Notes: a model not told the origin generated them from the letters alone. A stretch of 64,000 bases of DNA from Blasia pusilla (GCA_050084515.1 CM114271.1:7750001-7814000); one strand, 5' to 3'. Shown: positions 5,726 through 58,419, counted from the stretch's first letter. Numbers and translations: made by a program.

Positions 5726-6459
5726 TTACTATCTTGAATACAACGGAGATGCATCCTTACACACCTTCATGCAATAGAGGATATCTTACTAAAGCCCATG
5801 GTTTGGTGTATTTTTCAGCAAGAGACGATTCTTGTCTTGAACCTCATAACCGAACGTGTGTCAATGCTAAACATCGGGAATCTAGTAGGCTCACACCACA
5901 CTATGATGGATGCGCATCAAAGAGGTCTATTGAAGGACACATGAGATGTGAGACATTGAGTAAGATTGAGTTTTTCATATGTTGGCAATCGCGACTCGGG
6001 AAAATCGTGACTAAGCGCAAACCCAAACTTGAGAGGATTCAAGTCTAAGAAGAGTGGATTGCCAAAGAGGATGAGAACCAGACTTGGAACTTTACTAACA
6101 TTTGGTGTTTGATTATGTTTAAGGTCATAATCACCAATAACAAGGTGCGTTTGGGATAAGTAAGGGGGCATTGGAAAGCTCACACAAAGATTGTTCCAAA
6201 TCACTAAAGATCTTGACGAATGCATGAGTAGAGACAGAGAAATTTTCTGAAATCTTTTAGAAGGATAGTTGGGTTGCCGGCAAAAATGCGTGGCCCGAAA
6301 GTAATTTCTCAGATGTAAGGGGAGGGCGGAGAACCTGAGAAGTATATGTAAGGGGAAAAATCTCTAAGGCTGCTTAGGACCTCTACTCCACTTTGGGGAT
6401 CCATGGGGCGAACCAAGGGTTGAGAATGGATCGGGAGGTTGAGGTTTGGGTGCAAACAC

Positions 6460-8522
6460 CAAGCCAAGTCAAAGTAAGTGGATCTCGAAGTACAGCTCGT
6501 ATGAGGGTGAGTGCTTGGCTGCGATGTGGGCTGTCGCGCATTTCAGGTGTTACTTATTTGGCAACCCCTTTACCATCATCACTGATCATCAACCACTAAA
6601 GTGGTTGATGGAGTCCGACAAGCTTACAGGGAAGCTTGCGAGATGGGCTCTGTTGTTGCACGAGTATGATTTTCAGGTGGTACATAGACCTGGAACGCTC
6701 AACCAGGATGCAGATGGGTTGAGTCGTAACCCATGCCCGAGTCAGCGAGATGCGACTGGAGCTCGATGGCATGGAGAGAGTGATGAGGAGTCGGTGCCAG
6801 GATGGGCACGCCAGCCTATTTAGGCATGTTGGCTATGGAGAGCCAGCAGTGGGGAGACTTCGAGGGCGAGTTCTAGTGGAGAGTCTTTGGATCCCGAGGC
6901 CAGTGAGGACACGACAAGTGGCCGAGATATTCATGATGATGGAGTAGTCTTAGAGTACCTTCGTACTGGCAGCCTTGCGAGCACCATGGATGCTAGAGAG
7001 CGGGATCGGATCCTACAACGGGCCAGACGGTTCCGTTGGGAGGGGACACATGTTTTGAGGGTTTGGGAGGATGGCAGAGTACGCGTAGTGCTGCATCCTT
7101 TGCAGAGAGCACGACTAGTGCAGCATGCCCACAAGGAGTTGGGTCACTTTGGGGTGAAGCGGACGTATAGCTTGCTCCATTCAGTATTGGTGGCGAGGCA
7201 TGCAGATCGCGTTCGGCAGATTTGTTGCCAGGTGCATGGTGTGTGATCGGGTCCGAGCATCGTTCAATGCTCCGACTCCACAGTTGCATCCATTACCGAT
7301 CATGGGCTTAGGGTATAGATGGAGTTTGGATTTTGCAGGACCTTTGCCCTTGACGGAGCGTCACAATCGTTATGTGTTGGTGATGGTCGAGCACTTCTCG
7401 AAGTGGATTGAGTTGGTTGCATTGCCTGACAAAGCAAGTGAGGGAGTAGCTTATGCCTTCCTTGACAGAGTGCTGAGTCATTATGGCGCACCAGCTAAGG
7501 TGTTGACAGACCAAGGTACCGAGTTTCGCGGTGAGTTCCAGGCCTTGTGTGATCAAGCGCTGATTGACCACCGCACAACTTCGCGAGATCATCCTGAGGC
7601 GGATGGATTAGCGGAGAGAGTTGTGCAGACGGTGAAGAGGGGTTTACGCAAGTTTGGCTTGCAGAGAGGTCACCTAGGAGATTGGGACCTCTAGTTGCCA
7701 TGGTTGGCGATGGGATACAGATTCAGCAGGCAGGCATCCTTAGCGTCTTTTTCACCGTACTTGCTACTTTATGGCGAGAGCCGATTTACCTCGGCCATTC
7801 GTCGAGATCTTTGGTGAGGTTGAACCTTGATGACCCAGATGTATGGGTGCGAGCATGTTCTCAGAGGGCTGAGTTATTTCGGAGAGTGATGTCCATGGCG
7901 TTCGAGAACTTGGCGATTGCACAGCATCGGGATACGTTGAGGTATGTGACTATTCGAGGTGGTGGTTATCGACCAACTATCCGGAGGTTTCATCAGGGAG
8001 ATTATGTCTATTTGCAGCAGACGGCACCGACGACGTTGGATGTGACTGTAGGGCGCACTATCCTGAGAGTGCGTGATATTTTGCCATCGGGTGTTCTCTT
8101 GCTGGAGGGACGCGATGGTATGGTATGGAAGGACCATGTGCGTAATTGTGCGCCATGTCACCTTCCTAACATTGATGGTACAGTAGATCCGAGCTTAGAA
8201 GTAGTTCCTGCAGGCTTGCGTTGTATGTTGTGTGGATCTGCCCGTGGTGCGGCCACGATGCTAGTCTGTCATGGGTGTTCGAGAGGATGGCATATGGCAT
8301 GTTTGACGCCACCTCTCACTAGGGTTCCTCAGGGACGATGGATGTGTCCCAGATGTACATAGAGAAGGTAGTTCTACATTCCGACTTGTGTCTATGACAT
8401 GGATGACAAGGAGGCGACTAACGATGAGGCCACATGAGCACCCGGCCTTCTTGCCCTTAGCGTCCCAGAGATGTATGTCATGGTAGGTAGGGATAGATGG
8501 CTATCTGGAGTTAGAGGGACCT
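6460..8522 (+). mobile_element. Ty3/gypsy pol 3' fragment: RNase H - integrase - C-terminal PHD finger, then start of 3' LTR (~8476)
   Basis: RNase H: YSSYEGECLA, TDHQPL, ARWALLL, NQDADGLSR. Integrase HHCC region: HKELGHFG...CMVC. Core: LDFAGP, TDQG, GLAERV. PHD C4HC3 at 8222-8356. Several frameshifts and stops. Confidence 0.92.
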
Positions 8523-9725
8523 TGTGATACCCACAATTTTGTAATCTTGAAGAATATATCTTTTTATTCAACGAAGACTCTTGTTTATTATGATTTTGAT
8601 TATTTATTATTATGAAGAAGAATAAGTGAATCACCAAGCTCCTAAGATAAGGCAAAGAGATGGAAGATCAAGGATTTGCCTTAGAGGAGAATCAAAAGCT
8701 GTAACAAAGTATAAAGGATCAACGCGAAGCTCAGCGAAGTTTAGCGAAGCTTAACAGAGACTAACGAAGCTCAACGAAGCTCTGTATACGAAGTACTTCG
8801 CTCTTGAACGAAGCACGAAGCACGAAGCACGAAGAACAAACACGAAGCAGAAAGAAGAATGAAGAACTTCGTCCTCCGGAAATTTAGCGCAGCGAAGCTC
8901 AGCATGATTGAGATTCGAACCGACACATAGTTTAAACAATTAGACTAGGAAAGGGCGCGACCCTTTGTATCAAATTGTTAGTTAGGACAGTTTTGTATCG
9001 CGGATTCATAGGGATCGTAGGAAAAGCTAAGAGAACCATAGATCTAGGTAGTTACAGATATTGAAGAGACACCAACTTCATCAAGAACGCTTCGGATTAT
9101 AGAAACGATCCTACTCTGGAGAATATTTAAGAAACAAGACATAAGGTATTATCATCATTCACTCATGAAGTCCTTATGCTGTAGGAATGGTCCGAGTAAG
9201 AGAGTTGTACCCTCTCGAGCTTGTAGATACTTTGAAGTCTTCCAATTCTTGATGGAGTAGTAAATCATTCATTCATTCATTCTGATGTGCGATGCTTATG
9301 TCTGAGTATTCTTTTTGGGTATGCCGAGTGAAGAGTGAATCAGGCGAACCTTTCTCGTCAATGGAATAATCAACATAAAGTTGTATGAAATCTGTTTGAC
9401 AGAGAGTAACCTGCTCCGACGGATTGAGTTCCGAAAGTAGGAGAAGCCAGCTTTATTCTTGAGATCTCTGTGAGGTTCCGAGATATCGAGAGAACAAATT
9501 GCCTGAGCGTACTTTAAACTCCACTCGAGAGAATTGAGAAAGAAAACATAGGTACTAAAAAGAATCGGAAGATGTTATTGGAATACTACATTTGAATTAC
9601 CTAATCAATTACACTTTTACAACATAATCATCACTTTATATTCTCTTTTCATCCAACAATGATCCTCTTGGGGATCGAACTCTACAATTGACTGTAAATA
9701 AGAAACACTTAGACATTACATATAG
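8523..9725 (+). mobile_element. Athila-like LTR (copy 1), inserted into the 3' LTR of the PHD gypsy; 3' end rearranged
   Basis: Starts TGTGATACCCACAATTTT. It is colinear with the reverse complement of 59478-60770, with shared blocks such as GATCAAGGATTTGCCTTAGAGGAG, GAAAGTAGGAGAAGCCA and ACATTACATATAG. Contains CGAAGCA repeats. Confidence 0.8.
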
Positions 9726-9772
9726 TCGAAGACTTTATGTAATGTCTAATATGAGCCGCCCCGGCGAACACT

Positions 9773-11480
9773 TCATGATGTATCTCCTATCTCCATAAAA
9801 GTGTCGTCTAAACTATCAAATTCAAGGGTAGGCACACAACGGCCGTGAATCGTAGAAGGTTTGTTGATAATGTTAGGGGTACGATTGCGCATTCTTTCTC
9901 GCGACTTGTTAACAACTAAGTGACTCCCTAGGACTTCATTCTGGACTAAGACATCAGATGGAGTGAATGCTGGCAATTCTTCAAGAGTAAGTGAAAGAGT
10001 GGGTACTACTTCTGGAAGAGACTTGGTATGATTGTCGAATTGGCGCTTCCAATGTTTGTTGATGTAGTCGATTTCCTCGTTCATCTGCTCTTCGAAGTTC
10101 TTGCGAAGCGTGGTCTTCGTGCAGCTCTTTGACATCTTCCGGGTCCATCTGGGCTTCGCTGAGTAGCTTCTGGTCTGCCTCCAAGACTGCGATTCTCCCG
10201 GTAGCCTCCGCCCACTGCGCCAGTAAGTCTTTGTTCGCTTCTTGATGTTCTTGAAGCAACTTCGAAGATTCAGCATGTTGGATCGACAACTTCTTGAATT
10301 CGGTGTGAACCCGCCGTGTTTGATGTTGATGCTTGTCAATGAGGTGCGAAGCTTCCTTGATCTGTGAAACAAACTGATCCGCCCCACATTCGAGGTTAAT
10401 CGCCAAACTTTCCCATTGGCGTGCGTTCCGTGCTTCGTACTGACACTGGACCAAGTCGCATTGAGCTTTGCGAAGCGTGGTCTTCGTGTCTTCGAGTTCT
10501 TGATTCCGTAATTGCAGATTCATTTATGCTACTCGACGCTGTACTTCATGGTCTGACGAAGCTTGGGCTCTGCAGTTGAGGTCGTGCAGGCCTTCTAAAT
10601 AATCGTGCACGGATGCCATATCCTCGAGGTGAAGAACCCGCTGGAGTTGGTTCATGACAGGAACTGCCAATTGCAAGAACCATATCATGTCGTCTGCCGT
10701 CTGCGACATGAGGCGAAGTGCAGGTTGATGATCGCTTGCCCGCGGGTCTCGCCGTAATCCTCCCGCATGATGATTGTTGGGTCCGGGGTGTTTCAAAATT
10801 GACCCGGCCTCGCTTTGGCCGAGGCATTTCGTTGGTATCTTCGTCTTTCTTCAAAGCCGAAGTATGAGGATGTTGCTGAGGTGCTTCGGAGGGTGGGGTG
10901 ACTTCGCGACTATCCATGGTTCTAGTTGCGCCCTTCCGTGGTAGTCGGACGGGGGTCACTTGCGACCAATCTAACGCCTCCTCTGCGGTTAAATCCTGCT
11001 TGTGAATATAAAGATGGATCAAGAAAGGAGATAGGAAGGACTTCGTGCTTGGATGAAGCACTTCCACCATTCCTCGTACGTGACCGTCCACAAAAGCAGC
11101 AAAGTCGACTCCTGGGGCTTTGGGGTCAAGGTGCTGGTTCCAGATGATGTAGCACATCTTCAAGAGCTTGTCCGTCAGATAGTAAGAACGAGCGGGATAA
11201 AACAGGGTCATCAGATGTTTGCAAAATTGACCAAAGACGAGCGGAGAGAGTGACGAAGCCTTGTAGCCGTTCCTGCCCAGGCGCTCAGACGTGACACAGC
11301 CGAGTGCTTAAAGATCTTCATGTTTTACTAGCAACTCCTTGTCATACTCGTACTCTGGCGCAGCCGGGAGCAGACAAGTTGCTCTCCTGTCGTCCGCCGT
11401 CCAGTGTTGGGGCTGAGCTCGATACCAAAGACTCTTCTTTCAAAACTTGGCGACAGCAGACGTAAAGCGAAGCTCTCCCA
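9773..11480 (-). mobile_element. Degenerate accessory ORF of LTR-retrotransposon type, with C-terminal coiled coil
   Basis: Broken reading frame RAQPQHWT...GRNGYK...LFYP...SFLSPFLIHLY followed by a heptad-rich Q/E/K/L region (9981-10523). Resembles extra ORFs of bryophyte gypsy elements (from recollection, not searched). Confidence 0.5.
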
Positions 11481-12179
11481 GGAGTTCATTCTTCTTCCTG
11501 CTTCGTGCTTCTTGGCCATGCACATCCTTCTTGGCGGGCATGACAGTGGCAGATGCATACTCCCCATGCGACATCTCCACTAGTCCTGCTCCGACCAAGT
11601 CTTGGCTCCTACTCAATCGAGCCCTCTCCATATCATCACTGTAGGGTCGTCGGAAGATCGGCATATCACTCGACAACTCAATGCGGATCCCGGTCCCTTG
11701 AGCGCACCCAAATCCTCTATGCTAAACGCAAAGCAGATCCTATAACTACTGAGGAACCGATGTATTCGGCGCCGCTCTCCTCTGTCAACTTAGGGCCCAT
11801 ATCGGCTCCCAAGTCTCCATTGTGACTACGGTAGGACTCTCCGCGGGTATCGGTGGTTGCTATGGTGCAACCCCGTCTCGAACAACAACACACTGCCGCT
11901 CTCCTGTGACCAGCGCAAACTCGATCTCCTCCACGTGTAAAGGTCGAAACCACGCCGATCTTTGTGGCTATCATCTCCTTGTGAACCTTCAAAACATCCC
12001 AAGAAGTCAAGGGTGTCTCTCCCGATCTCCCTGGTGCGTAGATCTCCTCGGGTCTCTCGCCCGCCCACGCCTCCACCGTCTCGGTAGGCATGGGGCTCAC
12101 CAACGCAACCGGCCGTGATCATCCACGATCTCATACGACGCTTTCGCCCACTCCCAAGCCGAGGATCCATGTCAGCGAT

Positions 12180-13075
12180 TCAGTCCATCGCTGACCCAAG
12201 ACATGGCGTCGTGATGCCTCGACTCGATGGTACGCTCTTTACTCCGTGGAAATCCCATCGCCGCTCTCTCTCGTCGGGCGTTGGGCTCCACCAACCGCTG
12301 AACCTGGTCATCCCAAACCAGCGAGGACCGGCCTCCTTGTATGCATAGGAAGCGGAAAACTCACAACGTGGGCAAGGCGCCCGCGCCTGCCTACCCTATT
12401 GACCCCGCGACCGGTGGTCGATCATCGTGCCTCACCGCTGTGATCGGCGACCTGGATCCGAATGGAATCCACTAACAAAGGGGAGGGGCGCTCCACTCTC
12501 GCATACGCCCTCCATAACACCGCATGGGACACCAAGTTGGTCCACCATAGACGCGGGCGATGGGCTCTAGAACCTACACTTGCCGCATCCAAGAACACTG
12601 CTGGGCCGATCCAGCACGCACTGATGAGCACTCGTCACGACCCGTGACACGAGTCTCTAAGATCGGCACATTCTCCGAATGTAGGTGGAGAACAAGACCG
12701 GTGCTCCTGCATTGCCGTAAGACCCTCAACATCTCCCAAAACAACCTGGACCGAAAGTGTCACCAACCCGCCGCCTCGCTCAAAGACTCGATTGGCCTTG
12801 ACATGGCCAACCGGAAATGTCCAAATCAATGGTCCCTACCCGCTCTAAGTCTTGCGCCCCCAACAAGTAGGGAACTCTGGTACCCTTGTACTGCGGACAC
12901 AGAGAATAATGTCGGGAAAACGTAGGCGTAATTGCGCCACATGTCGTAGTGAGACGCGCCTCGCAACATCATCACTCTCCACATACAAGTACTGCTCTAC
13001 TCGCACTCTTGCCTGCAAAACAGCAGCTAACCCGATGTTAATCCCTCCAAAGAGATCTAACACTCGAATACCCTC
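12180..13075 (-). pseudogene. DNMT3-like C5 cytosine DNA methyltransferase domain within the gypsy polyprotein (frameshifted in this copy)
   Basis: Ordered motifs: I IRVLDLFGGI; II YVESD; IV DLDISGWPCQG (12827-12795); LFWEMLRVL; VI ENVP (12675-12664); VIII LDAASVGSRAHRPRLWWTNL; IX/X EPNA-RERAMGFP and ASRRHVLGQ-MD. Confidence 0.9.
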
Positions 13076-14928
13076 CTCCGGGGTACACCACCCAATGGGT
13101 GTAGTATCCAAGGGTGTCATCGTAGCACTCCCCGCTACCTTGGGTTCCTCAGACCTGTCACGCTTTGGTGCAAATGCCTCGCTCCACGCCGTCTGCTCGT
13201 GCGCATTTGCCAATCGTTGAAGCTCCTCAGTCGAGCCTCACAGCGGCACCTCTCCTCCATGGAATGATGCAGCTACCATAACACTCCTCTCCATAGAAAT
13301 GTCAGGAACGGGAGTATCCTCTGCATGGACATGTCCCTCAATCAAATCACTAGGCCAAGTGATGGCACTGCTAAATGCTGCTAAGGTCGCCATCTCTCCT
13401 GGCCGTTGCTCGATCACTGCACCTGTGAATCGAACGGGTAATGAGCTAAGGCGCCCATCACCCAACTGCCATCCTAGTCTGTAGGGCGCTGACTCCTCCC
13501 AGTAATCCAGGGAAAACCCCATCGGGTATAACACTGCTCCACCAACCAAGACGTCGTAGGACTCATCATCAGTCACTATCGTCTTGGCGCGCACCACGGA
13601 CTCATCTGTAGGATATCCCGGGCGAATCCTCACCACGACCTCCTGTCGGGTGATATACTGTGTGGTACTTGCTCCACCCAAGGATGTCTGTATCCGAAAT
13701 GGACAACACTCCACATCGGCTCTCGTCAAGCCCCAATCCTCTGAATGACGCTTTCCCCAACATCAAGGGTTGCGCTCCTGAATCCAACAAGACACGCTGC
13801 GGACTAAAAGCTCTACCTCCAGGACTCACCAACTGGAAGACCTGTCCTCGATAATCCAGCAACACAACACCAGGAGAAGCCATGGCACGCTCTATCGCGG
13901 GTCTAGCGGGCATATCCGCCATCCTAGCGACATGCACTGCCATGAATCCGCGTGGGACGGCCCAAGCATCCGCTCCAAGGGCAGGTCCATCACCTCCTCT
14001 ACAATCACCTCTGAACGTGATGCAGGAACACCATCTTCGCGCTCACATAGTGAAGCGGCCAGCCAAAAAGCCTCGGCGGGCGTACCTCCCAACGTCACAA
14101 CATCGGAAGCAAAAAATAAAGGAGTGCGGTACACGACGGTGGCCGCCCCCAACAACGTGCTCGACACATGCCCCTCCTGAGCATCAACAATAGGAGTCGT
14201 CGCACTCGCTTCTTCCATCGCCCTCCGTGCTTGCACACCAACAACATTACCAACTCTCCAGGAACTTTGATGAGGACCCATCGATGGGGTCCTCATCGCT
14301 TCGGACAACGTGAAAGATTGAGGAAGCCTAGTCTATCTACTGGCTTCCCCTCGCTGTGGATCCAACTCTGCGGCTGCTCCACGCGTCACAATTGCGGCGG
14401 CCTTCATCTGGGCAACCCCGCACATCCATCCAGGATCCTCTAGATCTCTGGCTGCTCCATATGATGTCGATGCCACGGATCCGGCATCAGGTAACCTCAA
14501 TGCCATAGCGACAACCTCCTCCTGTAGCTGTTGTATCTGAGCAGCCATCCCAGCCTCACGTCTGGCATCTCCCTCGGCGCGTCTAGGTAATGGTACTCTA
14601 CCTCCTCCACGGGCAACTCCACCACCCTGTCGGGAAACTCCAGCTCCTCGTCCCCCAACGGGACCACCTGGAGCACGATCTCTAGAAGGCCCACCCGGAC
14701 CGGCTACTCGCTCTGGGGCCCTCTCTGGCCCTTGGTCCAGCCGTAACTCAGGATGTAAACTAAAGCACCTGGCGCGTGTATGACCATACCTCTGACAATA
14801 GTCACACTGATAACCTCCTGGTGCAGCACCATCTCCTCCTCCATGCGGAGGCACACGTCCATGACCCTGACGTCGCGTTGATGATGGGCTCCACCACATG
14901 ACCAACAAGTAATAGTAGGCGGTTGCTG

Positions 14929-15879
14929 CTAAGCCGCATATGAAGGCGCAGGCCTCTGTGGCACGGCCTCTCGGTATCCTCCCTGAGCTCGTGGTGCCAC
15001 AGTCAACCTATCTCGGATTCCACGTTGCTGCACAGGTGGTGCAGACAATCGTGACTGCTCTCGCCCTGAACCCATGGTGGCTACGCTCTCCTCCGCCATG
15101 TTGCGCTCAATGTTCTCGGCGGTCCTAAAAACATCTCTCAACGTAGGGGAGGTGTTCATAAGAAGCACCCCCTCCCGCACCCGTGTTCGCAGGGTCCGGT
15201 CCAGCATCGCATACCATGACTGGATAGCCTGAGCCTCTGTCACCCCCTGAGTGACGTTGATCAACCGGCGCAAGCGAGTGTAAGCCTCACGCAAACTCTC
15301 ACCCGAGCGCCTCTGGAAGTCATGGATGCTCCGCAACTTCCCCGTCCGTACCTCCTGGTAGCTCGCCCTCAACTCAGCAAAGAACTCAACCACAGGGTTG
15401 AACCTGGGACAATCCCGACTAGACGGTGCAACTGCTCCCGTGCGAGTGACCCCTCCTAAAACATCACTAGTGGAAGAGGCAGTAGCCTCCCCTGACTCCT
15501 CCTCCTCATCTGGGAATGGCTCCGTCCATGACACATAATGTGGGTCATAGTAGAGCCTCCACGCCTCGATCTCACATGCATATCTCTGAGAGAACTCATG
15601 GTAATCGTCCGTGGGCACCCCCTCTAAATGCTGGAACATACCGTTCCATGTTGTAAACGGGTTGAACTCTCTAGAGTTCTTGGCCCGCTGGGAGTCGCAC
15701 CAAGTCCTAAACTCTACTATAAAATCGTGCAACTCAATCGTGCCTACAGCACCTAAAAACCTACGCGGTCCTCTACCCCGGTCGTCCATCTCGTACACCC
15801 AACATGTAGGACCACTCATAATGTGTGGCGATGTGCTCACAAACTCCTCTACACCCTCTCCCTCGTCTGACGATGACAC
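14929..15879 (-). CDS. Retrotransposon gag-like ORF
   Basis: 316-aa ORF with a retrotransposon gag major-homology-like motif Q-x3-ESLREAYTRL. The zinc knuckle follows after a frameshift. Confidence 0.8.
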   Translation of the reverse strand: MSSSDEGEGVEEFVSTSPHIMSGPTCWVYEMDDRGRGPRRFLGAVGTIELHDFIVEFRTWCDSQRAKNSREFNPFTTWNGMFQHLEGVPTDDYHEFSQRYACEIEAWRLYYDPHYVSWTEPFPDEEEESGEATASSTSDVLGGVTRTGAVAPSSRDCPRFNPVVEFFAELRASYQEVRTGKLRSIHDFQRRSGESLREAYTRLRRLINVTQGVTEAQAIQSWYAMLDRTLRTRVREGVLLMNTSPTLRDVFRTAENIERNMAEESVATMGSGREQSRLSAPPVQQRGIRDRLTVAPRAQGGYREAVPQRPAPSYAA

Positions 15880-16928
15880 AGAAGGAGCTTGAGGTGGTCC
15901 CTCACGTGGAGACCCTCGAAACCTCGCGCCACTCCGCGTAAAACCTCTAGAGCTACTCTCGGGTTCACCACCTCGCCTCTCAAAGTCCCGAACAAACTCC
16001 GTGATGACCCTCGTGCCCCTCTCACCCGATCACTCTGAACCTCGTGAGGAATCCCTCAATCACTCATCCCAAACATGCGGCACTCGATCTACACTCTCTC
16101 TCCCCGAGACGTGTAATGTGCGGCAACACGCGGCGTGGTGAGGCAAATCGACCAGGCTATCATCTCATCGACAACCTACCCTCAACTCGGAACATCCCAC
16201 ACAAGTCTATGTCCGCTAAACCACATACATAAATGATGCTCTGAGCATCCACACACCCAATATCCCCAAATAAATCCCAGAATCCCTCACACGTGCAGGG
16301 TAAAGGACCAGAATGGGTAACCTGAACACATGTCGATGTCGCTCCTCAAAGAATCGCAAATCTCGACCCCAACTCGATCGTGGAGACAACTCCTCCAATC
16401 AGCAAGTCATACTCCTCCCGTACTGATGCTCCTCAAAACTCCTCGATAGACAGTGCGGTCCCAGCGGAACGGTGCGACGTTGCAGGCGGCACGCAACGGC
16501 TACGAACGGCACGACCCTCGATGGTGGGATGCGGCACTCGGCGGCATACCCTCCTCAATCAATAATAATCCCACACTCTGCTCCACAATGACGGTGCGGC
16601 TCCGCGATCGAGATGGTGCGGTGCGGACACGAGCGGCACGGCGCGGCAATCGGCGGCGCGTTGCGGCTACGGGCGTCACGGCACGATACTCGATCGTCGT
16701 CGAGCGGCTGCCAATCACAACATAGCAGCATGAAATCAAAACTCAAACACCATAACCGGAGGTCATCTGCCTTCACTGGTTGATGAAGAAACTGCGATGA
16801 CGGTGGCGGCCAAAACAAAGTACGTGCTGGCGACGCAAGTCAAGGAATCAACGAACGTCATGGAAGACCCTCCACTCCGTAATGGCGGCAATGGCACCCA
16901 AAGGGTGGACAATGGACGGTGGACCCTT

Positions 16929-17048
16929 GACAGTGACGGTTGACCGCTGATGGTGACGGTTGACTGATGACGGTGACGGTTGACCGTCGACGGTGATAGT
17001 TGACCGTTGATTGTGACGGTTGACCGTTGACAGTGACGGTTGACCGTC
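16929..17048. repeat. Six tandem 20-bp repeats in the LTR/leader of the DNMT gypsy
   Basis: Consensus GAYDGTGACGGTTGACCGTY, starting at 16929, 16949, 16969, 16989, 17009 and 17029. Confidence 0.9.
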
Positions 17049-18169
17049 GACCGATGGCGGTAACTATGATGGCGACGGCCGCCGCCGGTGTGGCGGCTGA
17101 TTTAGGGTTTGCACGATTTAACCCTAAAAATCGCCTAGCAATGGTAGCTTTACAAGATTGCCCATAACTTGTTGCTCGCATCTCCAAATTGTGCATTGTT
17201 TGTTGCACAGCGTGCAGATCTTCACGATCTACGCTACCATGAAAAAATATTTAGAATCGAACATTTCAGTAAAAACTGACGGAGATTGTCGTAAAGCCCA
17301 ATGTCTCTTTCTCCTACACAAAATTCGGCAGCGCTCCCGCGCTGATTTCTCCGAACGAAAATGTAACATCTGTAAAAATACATATCAGCAAGCTACATGG
17401 TGCTCCCGAGAGCACCAGCATGGAGCAATCCGTCCCCATACTCAATCCCTATCAGAAATTGGGCAGTGCTTCCGCGCGCCACTCTTCCACACGAAAAATC
17501 GGCAAATGCAAAGAGTAATGAAAGCAGCCCTTGCTCCGGTGAGCACTCCCATGAGCCGCTGAACGGGGAACACGGTCCCCAACCTACAAAAACAGCGAGT
17601 GACCAGCGAGCTCCCCCATGAAGCTCTCTCACTCTCTTATTCTCTCTTTGTAAAGTAAGATCCAATCTCTCTCTCCACCATCTCACACCATAGCTCTCAA
17701 AGGTGTGCACTCTCTCTCATGTCAAACCAAACCCACTCTCCTAATGAGAGGCTTGGGTTACACTCACAGGGCAAGGTACCATAGCTCCGCCGCCTCATGC
17801 CAAGAGGTTCAACAAAGAGAGAATGAGCTCTCAAGTTCTCTCTCCTTGAGGTATACCCCTCTCCTCTCCCAAGCTCTCTCCATGGTAACCTATTCTCCCA
17901 AGTCACCTCCTTGGCTCTTGACCTGATGAAGGAGGTCAAGGGCCACTTACCAAAAATATTAAGTCGATCATATACTCAAAATGGTACTTACCTAAAATAG
18001 TAAGTTCCTCAATATGGCTCCAAATGAGCCAAAACGAAGGGGAAACCTGCTATCTCAGGTTTCCAAGGGCTCAGCACGTCACCCTCGACCTACAGGGCGT
18101 GTCCTCCACTACTCATGAAGGCGCTCTATTAGATCCCACCGATCTATCCCAAAAGACGTGACATCTATG

Positions 18170-20140
18170 TCCAAATGATGGACGTGATGAAGGTCAAGCA
18201 AATGATCCAGCAAAGAAGTGGATTGTCGAGCTAGAATGGGATAGAGCTCTCGGTTCTAACAATAAAATTTGCAAGAAAACACTTCCATTGCCATTCACAA
18301 AAATGGGGAAATCTCAAAAGGTTAAGGAGTTCCTCACGGTGTTCCATAGACGTTGGAGCTATACTTCGAGGGGCAAAACATTAAGGAGCAAGATAAGATT
18401 ATTGTGGAAATCGCATTGCAAAAGAATAATGTGCTCATGTGGCGAAAAAAATTATCAAGAGGAACAACTATCTAGTGGATTATCTTTGATTTGGGAGGAG
18501 TTCAAGGTGTTGATTAGCGATCCATTCACTCTAGAATACCAAGATTTCCTAGATGGAGTGGAGTTTGTGTGTTTGAGGTAGAGTGGGTCTCAAAGCCCTA
18601 ATGTGAGAAATTAGTGCAAATTTGAACTCATTGCCTAAGATGGATGAGTTCGCAAAGAAGGTCATATTCTTAAGCCGAGTATGGAGAAGGCCCTCTTTCA
18701 AAGGCCGCAGTTACGAAAGATGTGCAGAGAACTCGTGAAACTAGAGCAGCGGATAGGAAATGATTAGTTCCAAGTACAAAAACCGTTCGAGCTTTTAGAT
18801 TTTTTGAAGGTACAGAAGACCAAAGGGCCATTCAAGAGGCTCAATAGTGAGGGTGAGTATGAACAAGAAGAGTCTCTTACCCTTGCAGCAAAACAAGTGG
18901 AGTTCAATGCGAAGCCTAAAGAGGCCGAATATCCAAAGTAAGGGAGGGCAAAAGTGACTTGGTCCAATCCGGGTTGGCTTTTTTGGAGGCCAATCTTACC
19001 TGACCTCAAAGTTATTTTTGGTGTCCATTTTTGGATGAGGAGTATTCCAAGTGAAGGAGAAATTCACCATATGCGATATGGATGAGATTGTAGCAGTCTT
19101 GGGAAGATATTCTTGGCTGCCTATGCGTTGGAGCTAAATCAAAGACCATTACGGTTGAGAGTCTTATTGAAAGGCGAGCGGTTGCAGCAAAGATTGGTTT
19201 GTGAGGTTCATATGAAGAAGGAGTTGATGAACATCATTACAAGGGCAAGTAAGACCGAGATGGAAGATGGGTTTAACTGCTTGATGAGACAACTAGAGGC
19301 TACAAGTGAAACACGCAAAGATCATTCCTCAACTTTGAGGGAAATCGGAGAAGAACGCATAAGCGTAGTAAAGGAATTGGATCATTTCTTAACAACGGAT
19401 CTTCCGACGAAATGGCCACCAGATAGGGCATTCAATCATAAGATTCAGGTGCTAAGAACGTCTCAACCGCCGTCAAAGGCGCCATGTAGACTCAATCATA
19501 AAGAACTTGTTGAGTTGAAAAACAAAATAGTTGACCTCTTAGAAAGGGATAACATTCAAACTACCAAGTCACATGATGGGCACCCGTTCTTCTTATGAAG
19601 AAGAAGGATAGGAAGTTGAGACTATGTGTTGATAACCAGGCACTAAAAAAATGGGTAGTGAGGAATAATTACCCTCATTCCTAGATCGATGATATCTTTG
19701 ATAAACTTTCAAGGACTAGGCCCCTAGGTATTTCACAGGAATGGACTTAAAGTTAAGATATTACCATATTCGGAGAAAGAAAGTTGATGTGCAGAAGATC
19801 ATGGATAGAACGAGACATGGCATGTTCGTGTTTGTAGTGATGCTCTTTGGTTTGGGTAACGCGCATATTAAGTTTATACCACATTTATGAACTCCAGATT
19901 TCATAAGGAGATAAATGAGTATGTTATCATATACATTTATGACCTTTTGATATATTCGCAGTCATAAGAGGGGCACGCTTGATATTTAAGGGCGATATTG
20001 TCAAAACTTAAGGCAAACAAGTTGTACATAAATCTGGAAATGAGCAAATTTGGGTTGAGCAAGATAAAATTTTGGGATCCTGTGGTTGATATAGATGGAG
20101 TTAGTCATTATATGGATAAAGGAAAAGCGATTTCTAGGTA
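18170..20140 (+). mobile_element. Highly degenerate Ty3/gypsy gag-pol remnant
   Basis: PPDRAFNHKI...PPSKAPCRL...ELKNKIVDLL, LRLCVD, IDDIFDKL, MDLK-RYYHIR and IIYIYDLLIYS (decayed YIDD). Many stops. Confidence 0.8.
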
Positions 20141-23300: not shown

Positions 23301-24059
23301 AACATACGAGTTTTCGAGGGTTGTGGAATTGATCTTCACACCAATTTTTTTGCCATGGAAATGTTAGCAACCCCATGAGGATGTATTCCCATGGTCACAT
23401 GCACGACATGTTTTTTTTGTACTTTCAAGATTTTTTTATAGTCATCTATATTATGATGCGCGATAACCCTCTCGTCAACAAGAACTCGACGACGCGACAT
23501 CTGTCCTTTGGGATGGCTTCCTACTGCGACACATTCCACATTAGATGAGTTAGTCCCATCTAGCTAATTTAGAGAAAGGGGTGCGTCATCCTTATGGTGT
23601 GTTCATCTAGGGTTGGTGCAATCGTCTTTAGGTGCTAAAAATCTTCGGACCCTTGACTTTAATTCATCTAACCTTCAAAAGTTAATATCCTTATTTCTTC
23701 ATTCTCTATGTCACCATGCAAGAACAAAAAGAGAGGTGTTTGTGTGGACGAGAAAGCACTCTCCTATAATAGTATAGATATGCCGCAAAGACGCAGGGTG
23801 GTCACATCCCCTTGACCTACTTTCTCTGGCGATTGATTGATTATGACGCGATTTTGGGCGGGGACGGCGGGAGGCATGGACGGGGACGGCGGGAGGAAGG
23901 ACGGAGGGCGTAGGGGACGAAAAGAGACATGCTACATGTTGAAACGGAGAGCGTGACGAGAGCTTCGTTTTGATCCAGACCTTGCTGCATGGCGTGAAAT
24001 ATTTTAATTTTTATTCATCTTTTTAGAATTCGGTTCATATTAGGGTTCCAAATGTGAAT

Positions 24060-27000
24060 ATTAGGGCTTTGCTTATTGTCATTTGGAGAAATTTCCCAAG
24101 GTAACGTCCTCTATTCACCCACCCTTCCCCTCCTTTCCCAAGTCCTTTCTTGTTTGTTGTATTTGTCGTATGTGCTTCTTATTTTGGTTCGATTCACGTT
24201 TATATTTGTTACCCCTCTCGTACATACACTTTTCTTCTCATCTATTTTATCTCGAAGGGCCCATGATCTTTTCACACTCTTAGCAACTCTACGTATTCAT
24301 GAGTTTATTTTTGGGAGGGGGTTGGGACTAGAAGTCCTAGGTGATGTCGGTAGGTGAGAGTTTATGTTAGAGGGAGCATTACCGTGGATGGGAAGAGAGT
24401 TGTTTGCGGGACCGCTCGTCGAATGGGGATGATAGGACTATTATTGACGGGGATTGTCGCACGATTTTATTGGAGGGGGCCATGTCCTCTTCTTGGTGAG
24501 TTGCATCCATGCCTCGATCCGCATCGGCTCCCCGTGTGGGGACCCGTGGGTCGTCTAGTCGGGATACTAAATGCCCATGTTGTCCCGAATTCTTCACTCG
24601 GTCAGGAATTCAGAACCACTTAGCGGCTAAACATCCTGACTTTGATAGATTTGGATGGGTGGTCCCTCCTGTCGACCATGGATGCTCTCCGATGCTTCCC
24701 GCATCATCGCCCCCTCCTGAGGCATGGGAGTGGTTGAGGTCCCACCAGGGCAGCATTATAGGTCTCTTCGAGACCCGTTTTCCCTGCTCGAGGTTGTTTC
24801 ATAGGATCCCCCATGCTATTCGGGACGACCTCCGCCACGCATTCCTCCTTCCCCTTGCTAGGATCGCTCTGGATCCTATGGATGAGCTCTCTTGGTACCT
24901 ACTACTTCTCCTTCCACAATGGTGTCTTCGTTACACTCGGGGAGGGAAGGCCGGTCATAGAGAGGTTATAGCACGTCTGAGACGCTTTCGAGGAGGTGAT
25001 TGGGAGTCTCTGCAGAGTGAGTTTGTGGCATTCGCGAGAGGTAGTAGTTCACCTGGTTTCCCGGCGGACGATCCTAGAGCAGCCAGGTTGCGACGATGTA
25101 GGACACTGGGGCGAGCCTATGAGTACTCGCGAGCTGCACGGGCTCTTCGCCCGATGGACATGGCTCCTTCTTCAGCTGTTACCATCGATGCCCTCCGGAG
25201 GCTACATCCTCGTACAGCGGTTGACATTCCAGCTTTTGCACGTGACTTCCATCCTGACATGGCTATATGCCTTGACCCGTCCCTCTTTGCACGGGCACTC
25301 GGACGTTTTCCGAGGATTGCGGTCGGAGGTTTGTCTGGTATGATGTACGAACGAACACCTTCGTGATTGCTTTCCTTCCGAGGACACCGCTAGCGGCTGC
25401 TTCGAGTTGCTTCAGGTTGCCTCTCACCTAGCTCAGGGGAGAGTGCCAACAGCAGTGGCCCAAGTATTAGGGGCGGGGCGACTTTTGGCGTTGTCGAAGG
25501 AGGGTGGTGGTATCCGTCCGATTGCCATAGGTGAGGTGCTCTTGCGGTTGGTGAGTCGTACTCTCGCTTTGCAATTCCGTGAGGCTTTCCAGTCACATCT
25601 GAGTCCGCATCAGTTTGGAGTTGCCACGCCAGCTGGATGTGAGACGATTGCCTTAGGTTTGAGGGCTTGTCTAGATGTACATCCAGAGTGGGTGGTTCTC
25701 CAAGTGGACGTGGAGAACGCCTTCAACTTAGTATCTCGGCTACTATATTCACGAGTTGAGGGACGGGTGGCCCCATGGCGAGCCTCATTCCCTTTGTGCA
25801 GGCTTTCTATGGGGCCCCTTTGGCCCTCTATTTCCACCATGGTCGATTCGAGGAGGAGGTCACGGTCTTGGAGTCCGCACGGGGACTCGTCGGGGTGACC
25901 CCTGGGTGGCGCGTTGTTTCTTTGTGGCTCATTACCGAGCGGTTCTTTCACGGTGGAGGCTTTCCGGGTTGCATGTTCCCTTCATTTGGCAGATGATACT
26001 CATATTGTTGGTCTTGGAGATCTGGTTGTCCCCTGCATTCGAGCACTTTTCAAAGCACAGTTGGCATGTGTCGCCTGGCGGTGAAGGTGGGGAAGTGCAA
26101 GGCTTGGTCTCCATCAGGCCTACGTGATGATCTACATTTACCCGACGGCTTCTTGCGACTGTCGGAGGGCTTGAAGTCTTGGGAGTCCCGCTTGGGAGCC
26201 AGGACTTTGTATCGAAGTTCGTGGCGGCGGCCCCATCGAGGATATTCTCCACGTTGATGATCTTACGAGGATTGGTGACCCTCAAGTCGCTTCGGCATTC
26301 TCTCTTCTTGTTTTGCTCGAGACCTGGTTACCTCACTAGAACTATCGGACATCTAGTCACCTTTCTTCCCTATATAGATCCTTTGATAGGAAGCTCATGC
26401 AGGTGTTTGGGGATCTTCTAGGACCCGGCTCCTTAGAGTGCCCCATGGGGAGTTAGCTCGAGACAGGCCTCTTGGCCGATTTCTTTTGGTGGAGTAGGTC
26501 TTCTCTCGGCCGAGTTAGTGGCGCCCTCCGCTTTTTTTTAGGGAGTTGGGCCACAGTGGCACCCCTCCTTTGCTCCCGATTTTTGGTTAGAGATAGACCG
26601 CTCCTTCTACACTACGTCTCCCGGGTCGAGGATGGCTCTTTCCCACTTGATCTTCACTCACACGGCTTGTAGAGATTCCCTTCGAGTTGAGGCAGAGCCG
26701 TTCTCCCCACTTTCTCCTCCTTAGTTACCTCCGGTCGGGCCTGGGCTCCAATCTTCCTTGATGGAAGCCCACTTTGAGGCGATTTTAGAGGCACTATGTC
26801 CGGACGGGAATATCCCCATGGAGGTTAGGGCCCGTATTCGCTCTTGCTCGGAAAAGGGGCAGGCTCATGGGTAGGGGCGCCCCTTCTCCAGCTTTCCGTG
26901 ATCGCACCACTTACCTATACCACCGATGCGGTTCGCTTGGGCCTCCCCAACCATCGGTGGTTGGTTCGACATATCGCGAGTGTCGCGAGCCTGGATCCAC

Positions 27001-27715
27001 TTGGTGTGCATTTGGCACGTCTGTCGATTGGGGATGAGAGGATAGCCACTCACGATGTAGTGCGGGATATCATGTTCAGTATTGCTCGGGAGAGTGGCTT
27101 CCATGTGCAGAGAGAGAGGCACTACTCCATGCGGGATTCCCTCATTCGTGCCGATCTCTACATGACACGTGAGGTGGTTGTGGCGGACGTGGTAGTCACA
27201 GATCCCACGCGGGAGGCGGTCGAGCCCAAGTGGTGGCCCAAGGGCGAATGCTACATGAGCGAGCGGCGGCGGCGGTGAAGAAGACACATATCTCTGATCG
27301 ACTACACGAGGACACATCTTCATCCCCTGGCCATAGAGATGTATGGGGCTATGGGGGAGAGGTTCGACTCGTTCTTACGGATCGCGCCCATCATCTCCAC
27401 TCGAGAAATGGGTTGTCCTTAGCTCTGCGATTCAGTCATTGACAGGCGCTGGTCTCCATAGCGTTTGCGGCGTGCCAGGCTAATGGGATTTTGCGGCGGG
27501 CTCAGGCTGTGGGAGACGCCGACGCTAGAGGCCCACTTAGTAGTAATCATAGCTCTCTTGTTGTTGCTGATATTGTCTCTGCTATTGGTGAGTTTCGTCG
27601 TTAGGGGGGGGAATGCCCCCTTCTTCCTTTCCTGGTCTTGTTGTGGCCTTCAGGTTTTGACTCTTTGAGTCTCCCTCTTTTGTACTTCCAATGGGTTTTC
27701 CATCACTCGTTTTTA
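24060..27715 (+). mobile_element. CRE-clade-like non-LTR retrotransposon (C2H2 finger - RT - restriction-like endonuclease), frameshifted
   Basis: C2H2 CPCC...HLAAKH. RT: LLALSKEGGGIRPIAIGE, HQFGV, QVDVENAFN, GDP, ADD. C-terminal region: LDPLGVHL...HDVVRD...RE...RADL...DVVVTDP...AAAAVKK. No APE domain seen. Confidence 0.82.
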
Positions 27716-27987
27716 TCGAAGTGCATCTTAACCACGTTGGATGATTTACTCAACCATACTCATGGGTCTTACCTCGGGGCGGCTTCCGTAATGTGTGATC
27801 GGCTTTCGTGTTGCCGGGAAGGTCCTTTTATGGCAGGCCGAAAGCCTTACTGTTATGTAAATCACTTCAATTGTTGTCCACGTGGCAAATAGTACCGTAG
27901 GATATTTCTGGGTTATTCTCTTTTCGTTTCCAATCAGATTGGCTGATGTATAATAGTCAGGCTGCCACATTCCGACGCTCCGTTCAA

Positions 27988-28191
27988 TTATTATATGTAC
28001 TACGTGTTCGTTCGACGAGCAAAACGGCTGTAGGCAGCGAAGTCTGAACCATGGATGAATCTAGCGTAACCATGGTCAGATGCACGGAGTTATTATATCC
28101 ACTACGTGTTCGTTCGACGAACAAAACGGCTGCAGGCAGCGAAGTCTGAACCATGGATGAATCTAGCGTAACTATGGTCAGATGCACGGAG
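27988..28191. repeat. 102-bp tandem duplication (near-identical)
   Basis: TTATTATAT..CTACGTGTTCGTTCGACGA...GGTCAGATGCACGGAG occurs at 27988-28089 and 28090-28191. Confidence 0.95.
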
Positions 28192-30250
28192 TTAACTCAA
28201 TCTTAGTGATGAGTCAGGGGACTCAGGTCCCACCAAGGCGAGAATGCCACGCTTGACAACACCTTGTCCGGATTCAAAACTACCAACGTTCAAGGGGGGT
28301 CATAAAATCGCACTGGACGAGGAGCTATAGTCCATTCCTATTGGTTGCAGGGTGGTAAGATCTGTCGCAACAGTACTTAACGGCGTGACGCGTGGTTGCG
28401 TTCTTCCGACCGGATGGTAAGTGGCCCCCATTCCCCGGTCGAGCCTACTCGAGTTTGAACTCTGGGATTGAGAGGCAGGAGAAGTTTATGGTGGCGGGCC
28501 GCGCGTCTTTGCCCCGGTTCCTATACTCGAAACAAGGCCTGGATAAAAAGGTCATGGGGGGGAGCCGGTACAAAAGAAGGGTCAAGCGGCTCAAGCCCGC
28601 ACCGGCCAGGAAAGTGGCCAGTGCTGTCCTCCTGCCATGGCTACTGCGGGTAGGTCCAGTTGCATAACTACGGGTTTGAGTCTTGGGATTGGACCGGGAG
28701 AAAACCCTTCTTAGTTCTTTCCCAAGGCGGAGCGTTGGTAACTCTGATGAAGGGTCTGATCAGGTGAGCCCCGACACCCATGCGTGGCAGGAGTGGGATT
28801 ATGGGAGAGAATACGAACCCGTCCTGTTCTTCCGGAGTTTCCTAAACCGAGTGTAGAGGATAGTCTGATGTGGCGGTCCGTGGGTCGGGTCGGGTTCAAA
28901 CCCTCGGAATTTGAGCTGGGAGGACCGGGTGGGCAGAGTGGGAGTGATTATGAGCAGGGTCCTGCTCCCCCGGCGTCCCCTAGTGCGCATTCCTTCATTT
29001 ATGCCAGCAGCCATCCAAGACCGACATACAAACACAAAAGACGAGGAGTAGAAAAAAGAAAGGTAGAAAGCATAGCGAGCGTACTCGTCTGCTCCCTCCG
29101 ATCCTTCCCTTCATCTTTAATACCGAGGTACATATGCTGCCGGGCGTCTTGAAGCTCGCTGTGCGTTGTTGGTGCTATGATCTTTGAACTAGAACAGGCA
29201 GGAATTGGAACGGGTAAAAAAGCAGGTGGATAGGCTATTTCGTCAGTCAGTAAGGCGTGCAGGCAGGAGGTGGTTGTGATAGGCCTTTTCTTGTAATAAT
29301 ATGGCTTCCTTGCTTTCTGCTTCCACTTAGTATTCGAGAGGACGCTGGTGCGGAGAAAATTTTGTGGCAATTTCAAAGGATTCTGGATCTAGTTTTTGGT
29401 GAGGAGCGGGTTCAGTGTGAGGAGAAGAGCCTGAGAACCTAGGGCTTGCTGGCTGCCTCACGTGGGACCTTATGTTTATCGGAGTTGTCTTCTTCTAGAT
29501 CGTGCATGTGAAGGAGAGAATTGGCTGTCGGGTTTTTTCAGTTGAAGTCTTGATGATTGGCGATTTTCGGGTCCGGAATCGGTATAGTTTCTAGGGAATC
29601 ATTTGGCCTGGATTGGTTGCTATGCGCTGCTTCCGGGGGTGATTCCAGTTGATTTTGTGCCTCGTCTGGTGCGTTTTCTGCCTATTCCCGACCCGGAGCT
29701 ATGATTTCCTAGTTTTTTGCACTTGGTGTTTTGCTCCGATTATACGGCCGAGAACGTTTCTGATCATTTCTGTCGCTGCACATGCGCGGACGTCGTTTCG
29801 ATTTGCCGCATTTCATTTCCGAGTAAAACACTGCTGAGGGACGATATTCGGTCTTCTCAATAGAGGAGTCCCTGTTTCCTTTTTAGAGAGAGAAGTGGTC
29901 GAAAACAGCGGTGTCAAGAAGACAGACTTGTCCTTCGATCCGAATGCTCCTTACCAGGTTGAGGTCGGTTATTACTCGGGGGGTGTGCGGGAGGCTGCTC
30001 ATTCTAATTTCTCACTTTCACGTAGGCTGGGACTCTCGATTGCATAGGCTTCCATCCAAGCGCAGTTAAAGGCTTAATCACCACTGTTTACGCCATCTGT
30101 CCGCCGCCTTCATCTCTCGTTGCCTCGACATATTTGGAGCGTTGTATTCGGATCTGTGAGGCCAGAAGGTCTCGCTACTAGTTTCCAGGACGCATCATTT
30201 GAAGCATTTGGTGCCCAACAATCCAAGAGCATGATAGGATAAAGAGGTCG

Positions 30251-46090: not shown

Positions 46091-46271
46091 TGCATGAGCA
46101 GGTAGTAATGTGAGGTTACTTGAGCGGCACCTTTGGGGTTGTTCTTTGTAAAAGGTTTCGGAAAACCGGTAGGAAATCCCACTTTATCGATGCGGACTAC
46201 GAAACGCCGGCAATGTACTCGATCCCGGGAAAAACTCCTCGGAATTTGCTTCAAACTACTCTAGTGCACAC

Positions 46272-58396: not shown

Positions 58397-58419
58397 TTGG
58401 GTTTCCTTGGAGTCGTGTT

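Follow-up and report, generated by a model that had tools for sequence, protein, structure and literature searches.

The question raised by this locus is whether a writer and a reader of chromatin marks travel together in one mobile element. The sequence concerned is a stretch of 64,000 nucleotides from Blasia pusilla (GCA_050084515.1 CM114271.1:7750001-7814000), hereafter the window, whose DNA is eukaryotic and rich in repeats. Two retrotransposon pieces lie in it on opposite strands: the minus-strand piece carries a region resembling the DNMT3 group of DNA methyltransferases ahead of the start of a reverse transcriptase (RT), and the plus-strand piece carries an integrase (INT) that ends in a PHD finger. 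A first-pass annotation, made from the sequence alone, had proposed that both belong to one lineage of the architecture gag-PR-DNMT3-RT-RH-INT-PHD, where PR is the aspartic protease and RH is RNase H. We conclude, at a probability of about 0.88, that the window holds two degenerate, cut-down fragments of a single, very high-copy family of Ty3/gypsy type in a bryophyte-like plant genome. The assignment to Ty3/gypsy is based on the order PR-RT-RH-INT with a DDE integrase (rve); the relatives have RVT_1, RT_RNaseH and rve in that order.

Association of the DNMT and PHD halves

The best named matches of both halves are gene models of Marchantia (48-50% identity for PR-DNMT and 67% for INT-PHD). 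A search with the INT-PHD frame returned 68 proteins, the best named of which come from Marchantia polymorpha (67% identity) and Calypogeia fissa, and a search with the DNMT frame of the window returned PR-DNMT open reading frames (ORFs) with intact motifs from Calypogeia and from unnamed sources. Protein P0012 carries DNMT-RT-RH-INT-PHD in a single ORF, and P0249 carries PR-DNMT-RT-RH-INT-PHD in a single ORF of 2358 aa. In tblastn comparisons, residues 3-572 of P0012 map to the minus-strand piece and residues 840-1513 to the plus-strand piece; for Marchantia Mp_7g09570 (P0002) the corresponding residues are 1-249 and 258-608.

Metagenome contigs scanned with an INT-PHD alignment yielded 80 loci, which were considered testable if RT began intact and was preceded by 1.5 kb of sequence or more. 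A DNMT domain upstream of RT and a PHD finger after INT were both present in 22/22 testable loci; three other loci are truncated inside RT and 55 are too short, and two loci show the DNMT end at the contig edge. When both window fragments were aligned to full-length elements, locus L034 was the best DNA match of each (71.8% over 2032 contiguous nt for the plus-strand piece, patches of 65-77% for the minus-strand piece). The same full-length loci match both pieces at a DNA identity of about 65-77%, and region-wise identities fit an equal divergence of both halves from the related loci. The part missing between the pieces corresponds to L034 8001-8881, the RT core, with the minus-strand piece ending at L034 8000 and the plus-strand piece starting at 8882.

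Judged from these related sequences, gag-PR-DNMT3-RT-RH-INT-PHD is the order of domains at the level of the family. The single lineage proposed initially is thereby supported by the 22 loci, P0012, P0249, L032 and L034, and the converse case, in which elements with DNMT lack PHD and elements with PHD lack DNMT, is contradicted by the loci. It is very improbable that the two pieces derive from different retrotransposon lineages merely lying side by side. Their terminal sequences do not match, and the closest PHD-side proteins (P0004-P0011) are without a Pfam DNMT while the closest DNMT-side proteins (P0070-P0072) are without RT, INT and PHD. This split, however, follows from a conserved in-frame stop that separates DNMT from RT and makes gene callers report two ORFs, and separate lineages are hard to reconcile with the occurrence of both domains in every testable locus, with the single ORFs of P0012 and P0249, and with L034 as the best match of both pieces.

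Internal deletions were also observed among the relatives. Loci L003, L010 and L011 and protein P0002 (Mp_7g09570) keep PR-DNMT...INT-PHD and have lost RT and RNase H; these deletion derivatives may be non-autonomous forms.

Layout of intact members

Locus L032 is intact, with an ORF1 of 1369 aa (gag with two CCHC knuckles, PR, and DNMT with all motifs), a TAG codon, and an ORF2 of 1047 aa (RT-RH-INT-PHD) in the same frame. An in-frame stop stands at the homologous DNMT-RT site in 20/20 same-frame loci of groups 1/2 (..ASPKVFA*QPMA.. in group 1), and the stop contexts are TAG-CAG-TTA (L032), TAG-CAA-TCA and TAA-CAA-CCC. The readthrough signal of plant viruses is stop-CAR-YYA, and we take two of the three contexts, TAG-CAG-TTA and TAG-CAA-TCA, to fit it. 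Gag-PR-DNMT would be the main translation product of such an element, and RT-RH-INT-PHD would be produced by readthrough of the stop codon.

The ends of the related loci consist of two repeats. Repeat A, of 337 nt, forms the 5' start, and the polypurine tract is followed by repeat B (about 122 nt, ending ..CGCACGACA), two bases, A and again B. Twelve loci show the B-A-B arrangement, and the complete A...B-A-B set is seen in L023, L045, L047 and L049, the outer element ends being TG...CA with a short inverted match (TGTCRTG). A plain pair of 340-nt long terminal repeats (LTRs) was considered for the related loci and replaced by these split direct repeats. Two identical flanking LTRs were thus not found: the related loci carry A1...B1-A2-B2, and the window has only an A-type 5' start. 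About half of the loci seem to end directly after the first B repeat, which we tentatively attribute to collapse of B/A in short-read assemblies or to recombination between B1 and B2. An intact element would accordingly read A1, gag (CCHC), PR, DNMT3-type domain, leaky-looking stop, RT, RH, DDE INT-PHD, 3' untranslated region (UTR), polypurine tract and B1-A2-B2.

The two pieces in the window

The minus-strand piece spans 18163 to 11515 and opens with a terminal repeat and a non-coding leader; gag and protease follow, then a DNMT3-like domain broken by frameshifts, and finally the start of RT (Table 1). Its initial description as LTR-gag-PR-DNMT-RT start holds for every component, except that the family ends in split direct repeats and not in plain LTRs. 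Position 18163 is the true start of the element. Read depth (mapped contigs and reads) is highest in the bin 17676-18092 and drops beyond 18163, and the TGTCACG at this position fits the A-repeat starts of related loci, TGTCATGACC in the main group and TGTCACGGC in L032. Beyond 18163 two RNA-type contigs continue into a B-repeat-like end, so that a B-like end is joined to the A start in the window's organism as well.

Table 1. Features of the two element pieces and of the adjoining repeat in the window, with the junction stops of three related loci.
Feature	Position	Strand	Evidence or remark
5' terminal repeat, A-type, inner end provisional	17641..18163	-	begins TGTCACG at 18163; depth peak; A-repeat start motif of related loci
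Extra leader, ~1.15 kb	16486..17641	-	34 other letters instead in transcribed copies of the window's organism
gag, two overlapping open frames, one CCHC zinc knuckle (CDYCQRYGHTRARC) at ~14762-14809	14333..16029	-	
Aspartic protease region (LLDSGAQP), one frame change	13430..14128	-	
DNMT3-like C5 cytosine methyltransferase domain, now a pseudogene	12232..13108	-	family hidden Markov model (HMM)
Reverse transcriptase N-terminal start, first ~90 residues	11515..11780	-	tblastn with P0004 and P0012
RNase H C-terminal half (profile positions 65-132 of 132)	6470..6673	+	PF17917, E 7.6e-21; family HMM
Integrase zinc-binding domain and DDE core, one frameshift	7082..7619	+	PF17921; PF00665, E 9.7e-15; family HMMs, E 1.9e-53
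PHD finger (C4HC3), integrase C-terminus, all eight zinc ligands	8213..8359	+	PF00628, E 8.2e-11
Element 3' UTR, broken off ahead of the polypurine tract, includes the 8476 motif	8363..8522	+	alignment with 21 related loci
Unrelated high-copy repeat starting TGTGATACCC, outside the element	8523..9558	+	depth pattern unlike that of the element
DNMT-RT stops of related loci	L032:5083-5085; L033:4661-4663; L034:7644-7646		

Inside the minus-strand piece, the joint 16486->17641 is carried by ten RNA reads, with 34 letters in between, and 20-nt tandem repeats (family D5) lie at 16915-17074 within the extra leader. The gag of the window is 40-70% identical to the gag region of L047 (tblastx) and is also matched by P0072 (tblastn). 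The protease was recognised at 13430-13832 (E 3.6e-35) by a family HMM built from relatives, and the call is supported by the phases of a tiled tblastn and by PF13650, weakly present in the relative P0071. Motifs I (LDLFGGI), IV (GWPCQG; PCQ), VI (ENV), VIII (SRAHRPRLWWTN) and IX/X of the DNMT domain are legible only across three frames; tiled tblastn with an intact relative as query changed phase at least six times from 14128 down to 12250, and an in-frame stop stands at 13235-13237. Relatives P0070-P0072 of this stretch carry PF00145. RT is broken off at 11515, directly ahead of its RMCGDYR motif, and 111 RNA reads extend past this point, their reverse complement reading ..WTDRRMCGD, the next RT motif.

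The plus-strand piece, from about 6450 to 8522, comprises RNase H, integrase, PHD finger and 3' UTR. Its start lies between about 6417 and 6470, with depth climbing in the bin 6417-6833, and its domains are held by four stop-to-stop frames within 6443-8362, with one in-frame stop and two frameshifts. Pfam confirmed the RH, INT and PHD that had been read in this piece. The stretch at 8476, where an LTR start had been placed, is the conserved 3' UTR upstream of the polypurine tract (..CTAGGGGGG..) in 20/21 aligned related loci, L039 being divergent, and other copies continue past 8522 with AACCACCAGCTAGGGGGG (89 RNA reads, 99 DNA contigs). Because 8476 belongs to the 3' UTR and the window switches to another repeat at 8523, the plus-strand piece carries no terminal repeat at all. 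The strings at 18163 and 8476 once taken for similar LTR starts do stand there exactly, but their likeness is not LTR homology; 8476 and 18163 as homologous LTR starts were rejected on the alignment of 8476 to the 3' UTR and on the reads that continue past 8522. Both window copies are dead, and a family HMM scan found no second copy of the family domains elsewhere in the 64-kb window.

The repeat that adjoins the plus-strand piece begins TGTGATACCCACAATTTTGTA and is a high-copy sequence of about 1 kb, present at 8523-9558 (+) and as an inverted copy at 60770-59663 (-), with 72% identity over 986 nt. One copy of this inverted repeat (8523-9558) cuts off the PHD-bearing piece. Depth is that of single-copy DNA at 6000-6416 and at about 10170-11003; another repeat and unique DNA therefore separate the two pieces. 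ORFs of the filler at 9773-11307 and of the flanks gave nothing above the Pfam threshold.

We favour two separate insertions over one rearranged copy, a choice that leaves the family-level result unaffected. The less probable, though serious, alternative is that both pieces are halves of a single insertion that was later inverted, with loss of about 880 nt of the RT core and of the 3' terminal repeats. The pieces are near-exactly complementary (L034 8000 / 8882), they are similarly distant from L034, and they lie 3 kb apart in converging orientation, the outcome expected of an inversion with one breakpoint in RT. A single copy nevertheless needs at least three events: besides the inversion, 880 nt must be lost, and the polypurine tract and B-A-B must disappear as the other repeat arrives at 8523. 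Moreover, no second copy of the A repeat of the minus-strand piece occurs anywhere in the window, and with very many copies of the family two neighbouring fragments are unsurprising, which again speaks for separate insertions. Another route, an inversion by way of the two inverted copies at 8523-9558 and 59663-60770, was rejected, as its geometry puts the 5' half downstream of the 3' half.

Abundance and transcription

Contigs and reads of the window's organism were mapped at a likeness of at least 80%. Summed depth reached 1e4-6e5 on both pieces, compared with 39-73 on unique stretches. The family is therefore very high-copy in this organism, even if depth summed over contigs gives no exact count of copies. 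In one stranded RNA run, first mates over the plus-strand piece lay mostly on the minus strand (117-208 versus 10-24 on the plus strand), and those over the minus-strand piece lay mostly on the plus strand (25-180 versus 2-15 on the minus strand). The strand bias flips with the orientation of the piece, which points to strand-specific transcripts, of sense orientation under the usual library convention.

The DNMT3-type methyltransferase domain

Comparison through PDB searches and Foldseek supports the DNMT domain as DNMT3-type, both by sequence and by predicted fold. DNMT3A/3B/3C occupied the top 29 rows of the PDB sequence search (E 5e-8 with L032, 1e-6 with P0012), and HaeIII (about 4.5e-5) and plant DRM came lower. 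When the L032 domain was modelled with AlphaFold2, using 50 relatives, the predicted local distance difference test score (pLDDT) was a confident 96.4 and the predicted template modelling (TM) score (pTM) 0.93. The matches listed by Foldseek for this model (ranks 1-49, a listing that leaves out similar further chains) are all DNMT3A/3B/3C, with E 1.5e-19 and TM 0.72/0.83.

It is scarcely credible that the DNMT stretch came from a host DNMT3 gene, as a fragment or by transduplication, instead of being an integral domain of the element. In favour of such an origin, the stretch in the window is frameshifted and its fold is that of host DNMT3. In intact relatives, however, the DNMT lies in frame between PR and RT, and it is represented by 280 cluster representatives at E<=1e-30; a tree of the domain splits by element architecture with one change (support 98), and Pfam scans of relatives list no ADD or PWWP domain. 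The scans concerned are those of P0012, P0032, P0053 and P0070-P0072, in none of which an ADD/PWWP reader is listed.

The family domain looks catalytically competent from its residues and its modelled fold. Motifs I, IV, VI, VIII, IX and X follow in standard order with the catalytic Cys, ENV and RxR (50 sequences; L032). Among the 50 relatives the catalytic Cys is kept in 44/45, the ENV Glu in 47/48, each RxR Arg in 47/49 and the motif I Gly in 45/45, and across distant relatives the glycines that bind S-adenosylmethionine (AdoMet), the catalytic Cys, ENV and RxR are kept at 44/45 to 49/49. We consider it unlikely that the domain is a non-catalytic pseudo-enzyme serving as a structural or DNA-binding module. 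The proline of motif IV is replaced by Glu in 11/45 sequences, which would suit such a role, and according to the available text of PMC5890265 no activity was detected in yeast for the corresponding domain of Klebsormidium nitens, a result that its authors call inconclusive. Conservation of the catalytic residues across distant relatives and the complete DNMT3-like fold of the model argue instead for an enzyme. Such an enzyme would methylate cytosines de novo on the new copy or in its surroundings.

The PHD finger of the integrase

The eight zinc ligands of the PHD finger (C4HC3) are invariant, eight of eight, in 15 sequences, the window included. Among the best 60 of 92 PDB matches, the closest are CHD4 PHD2, PHF12, KAT6A, KDM5B/KDM5A PHD1, DPF3 and PHF21A, and ATXR5, AIRE, BAZ2A/B and UHRF1 are also among the closest. 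Fingers of the CHD4 PHD2/PHF21A/AIRE class bind histone H3 tails in which K4 or R2 is unmodified. By sequence the family finger, with its G-W-H motif, resembles these readers of unmodified histone H3 (BHC80, AIRE, CHD4 type) and is a candidate member of their class. By analogy with the chromodomains of chromoviruses, the finger may tether the integrase to chromatin without H3K4 methylation.

The first-pass annotation had seen in the element an echo of animal DNMT3, which joins an ADD reader to its catalytic domain. Both modules are indeed present in the element, but the reader is a canonical C4HC3 PHD finger on the integrase and not an ADD domain. Reader and writer are parts of one element and not of one DNMT3-like protein, because the conserved stop and, presumably, protease cleavage separate the PHD finger from the DNMT. 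The ADD domain of DNMT3 reads unmodified H3, and the likeness of the PHD finger to it is at most functional.

Distribution and domain orders of the family

An exhaustive, profile-free search with P0071 returned 4102 cluster representatives with a cut-off of E<=1e-3 and 280 with one of E<=1e-30, the domain orders of which were assigned with family profiles built here. A PHD finger is present in 44/60 representatives that have both DNMT and INT, and 15/16 of those without it end 0-207 aa past the integrase match, short of the place of the finger. P0248 has an odd Cys-rich tail. Two domain orders were found among the 39 representatives with RT and INT: RT-RH-DNMT-INT in 37/39, the named members being chlorophytes (Haematococcus, Tetrabaena, Chlamydomonas eustigma), and DNMT-RT-RH-INT in 2/39, the order whose named members are bryophytes (Marchantia, Calypogeia, and Sphagnum fallax BDL97_09G086500). 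At least 14 annotated gene models of Marchantia polymorpha belong to the family. A FastTree analysis of 164 DNMT domains shows one change of architecture (branch support 98; unrooted), which allows a single relocation of the DNMT between the two orders. Precomputed Pfam annotation flags DNMT in 3/68 of the INT-PHD relatives and the family profile finds it in 22/68, so surveys based on Pfam undercount DNMT-bearing elements.

Several observations weigh against the reading of the window as two fragments of a family in which DNMT and PHD are paired. The two halves were not found joined on any contig from the window's organism, and their linkage depends on relatives with a DNA identity of about 70%. 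Nor are the 22 loci fully independent of one another: they stem from a small number of related metagenome series, L043 is near-identical to L044 and L010 to L011, and L023 and L047 are close. In the window, Pfam gave no DNMT score to the individual broken ORFs of the minus strand, and it took relatives and family profiles to recover the domain. Among relatives, P0168 has DNMT and INT and a different long tail without PHD, and P0253, P0256 and P0257 (PR-DNMT-RT-RH-INT) have a full-length integrase tail of 260 aa, also without PHD. Only 32/6740 RNA reads are at least 99% alike to the window and most are less than 95% alike, so the RNA comes from other copies and not from those in the window. The yeast result for the K. 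nitens domain, given above, belongs with these points. The tail shared by P0253, P0256 and P0257 ends in a conserved ..ATAVTIESFY.. motif.

A wider reading, which we put forward tentatively and regard as rather doubtful, is that the family represents an ancient gypsy clade of the green lineage in which a competent DNMT3 writer and a PHD reader of the H3K4me0 type have been kept together. The DNMT would stand as PR-DNMT-RT in bryophytes and as RH-DNMT-INT in chlorophytes, the writer would be made at the level of Gag ahead of a leaky stop, and the clade would be very high-copy and transcribed in at least one liverwort-like genome.

Other features of the window

Two further ends of the B-repeat type (..GATGTATGTTGTGTAGCGAT.TGTATGCGCACGACA) lie at 53810-53852 (-) and 63275-63340 (-), each followed by unrelated sequence. 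This suggests that they are the 3' ends of further related minus-strand elements, with no recognisable coding part adjoining. At 19726-19875 (+) and 57491-58655 (+) the family profiles give weak matches of RT-like and integrase-like type (E from 1.6e-3 to 5.6e-9), which probably represent the remains of other gypsy elements. Another repeat, direct and about 1.3 kb long, occupies 46266-47566 and 50359-50881 plus 53052-53816; its second copy is split by a 2.2-kb insert, in which a tandem array of 32-nt units (51350-51774) and a weak integrase-like match (51018-51446) are found. The block 24001-30000 is GC-richer (0.52), its AT skew is strongly negative (-0.24 to -0.26), and 102-nt units form a tandem pair at 27988-28191.

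Relation to known systems

A DNMT3 domain in a gypsy element with DIRS-like repeats is already known from K. nitens. This element, KnitGypsy-Dnmt3, is the closest known relative of the family described here, the two being set side by side by description. As described in the available text of PMC5890265, it is of gypsy type and carries an unrearranged DNMT3-type domain in its polyprotein in a streptophyte host, and its repeats are arranged 'as in a DIRS retrotransposon' (Fig. 4c legend, de Mendoza et al. 2018, PMC5890265), matching the A...B-A-B of the related loci here. The same text presents it as an acquisition of the K. nitens lineage with few copies, whereas the present family occurs in liverworts and mosses at very high copy number and, unlike KnitGypsy-Dnmt3 as described, has INT-PHD and a conserved DNMT-RT stop. 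The text of PMC5890265 contains 0 mentions of a PHD finger, although its figure and supplements may show one. No K. nitens-named protein is among the 68 + 5 + 63 matches of our family searches.

In chromoviruses, too, a histone reader follows a GPY/F-like stretch (here with the consensus FSPY..LLYGREP) and closes the DDE integrase at its C-terminus, and chromatin-directed integration is likely the shared role. The reader there is a chromodomain, whereas here a PHD finger (PF00628) takes that place and a DNMT is present; no chromodomain is listed in the Pfam scans of the window and its relatives. SymbioDIRS-Dnmt3 and SymbioLINE-Dnmt of dinoflagellates are also retrotransposons that carry DNA methyltransferases. 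DIRS/Ngaro elements use a tyrosine recombinase; the present family has rve and Integrase_H2C2, and Pfam lists no phage-integrase family in it. In EpiLTRs a gypsy-like frame houses writers together with a chromatin reader, but their DNMT is sister to DNMT4 and occurs with a DAM domain and a chromodomain, according to the available text of the preprint (10.64898/2026.05.21.726589), in contrast to the DNMT3-type domain, PHD finger and DDE integrase here.

Host DNMT3 shares the catalytic fold and motifs. It differs in carrying its ADD/PWWP reader on the methyltransferase, whereas the element has a plain PHD finger on the integrase, beyond the stop and several domains. The PHD finger is described as a common accessory domain of Chlamydomonas transposons, REM1 and others, in the portions of PMC8557442 and PMC6673714 available to us, which make no link to a DNMT; here, many algal RT-RH-X-INT-PHD proteins hold a DNMT in X. 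The available part of the preprint cited above names 'streptophytes (Gypsy-DNMT3)', and that of PMC12344493 mentions DNMT3 'embedded within retrotransposon structures'. In the published literature searched, we found no description of the DNMT-PHD pairing, of bryophyte members, of the DNMT-RT stop or of the two domain orders, with the caveat that the 2018 figure and supplements may show a PHD finger.

Significance

So far, very few lineages are known to have retrotransposons that carry a DNMT. The present results indicate that the streptophyte DNMT3-gypsy type is not confined to Klebsormidium and also occurs in liverwort and moss sequences, almost always with a PHD finger on the integrase. If the tentative reading of an ancient clade is true, the DNMT would add to de novo methylation by the host, and the PHD finger would steer insertions to H3K4-unmethylated chromatin. 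Marchantia offers a tractable model in which to ask whether the writer of the element alters host methylation and whether the PHD finger directs integration.

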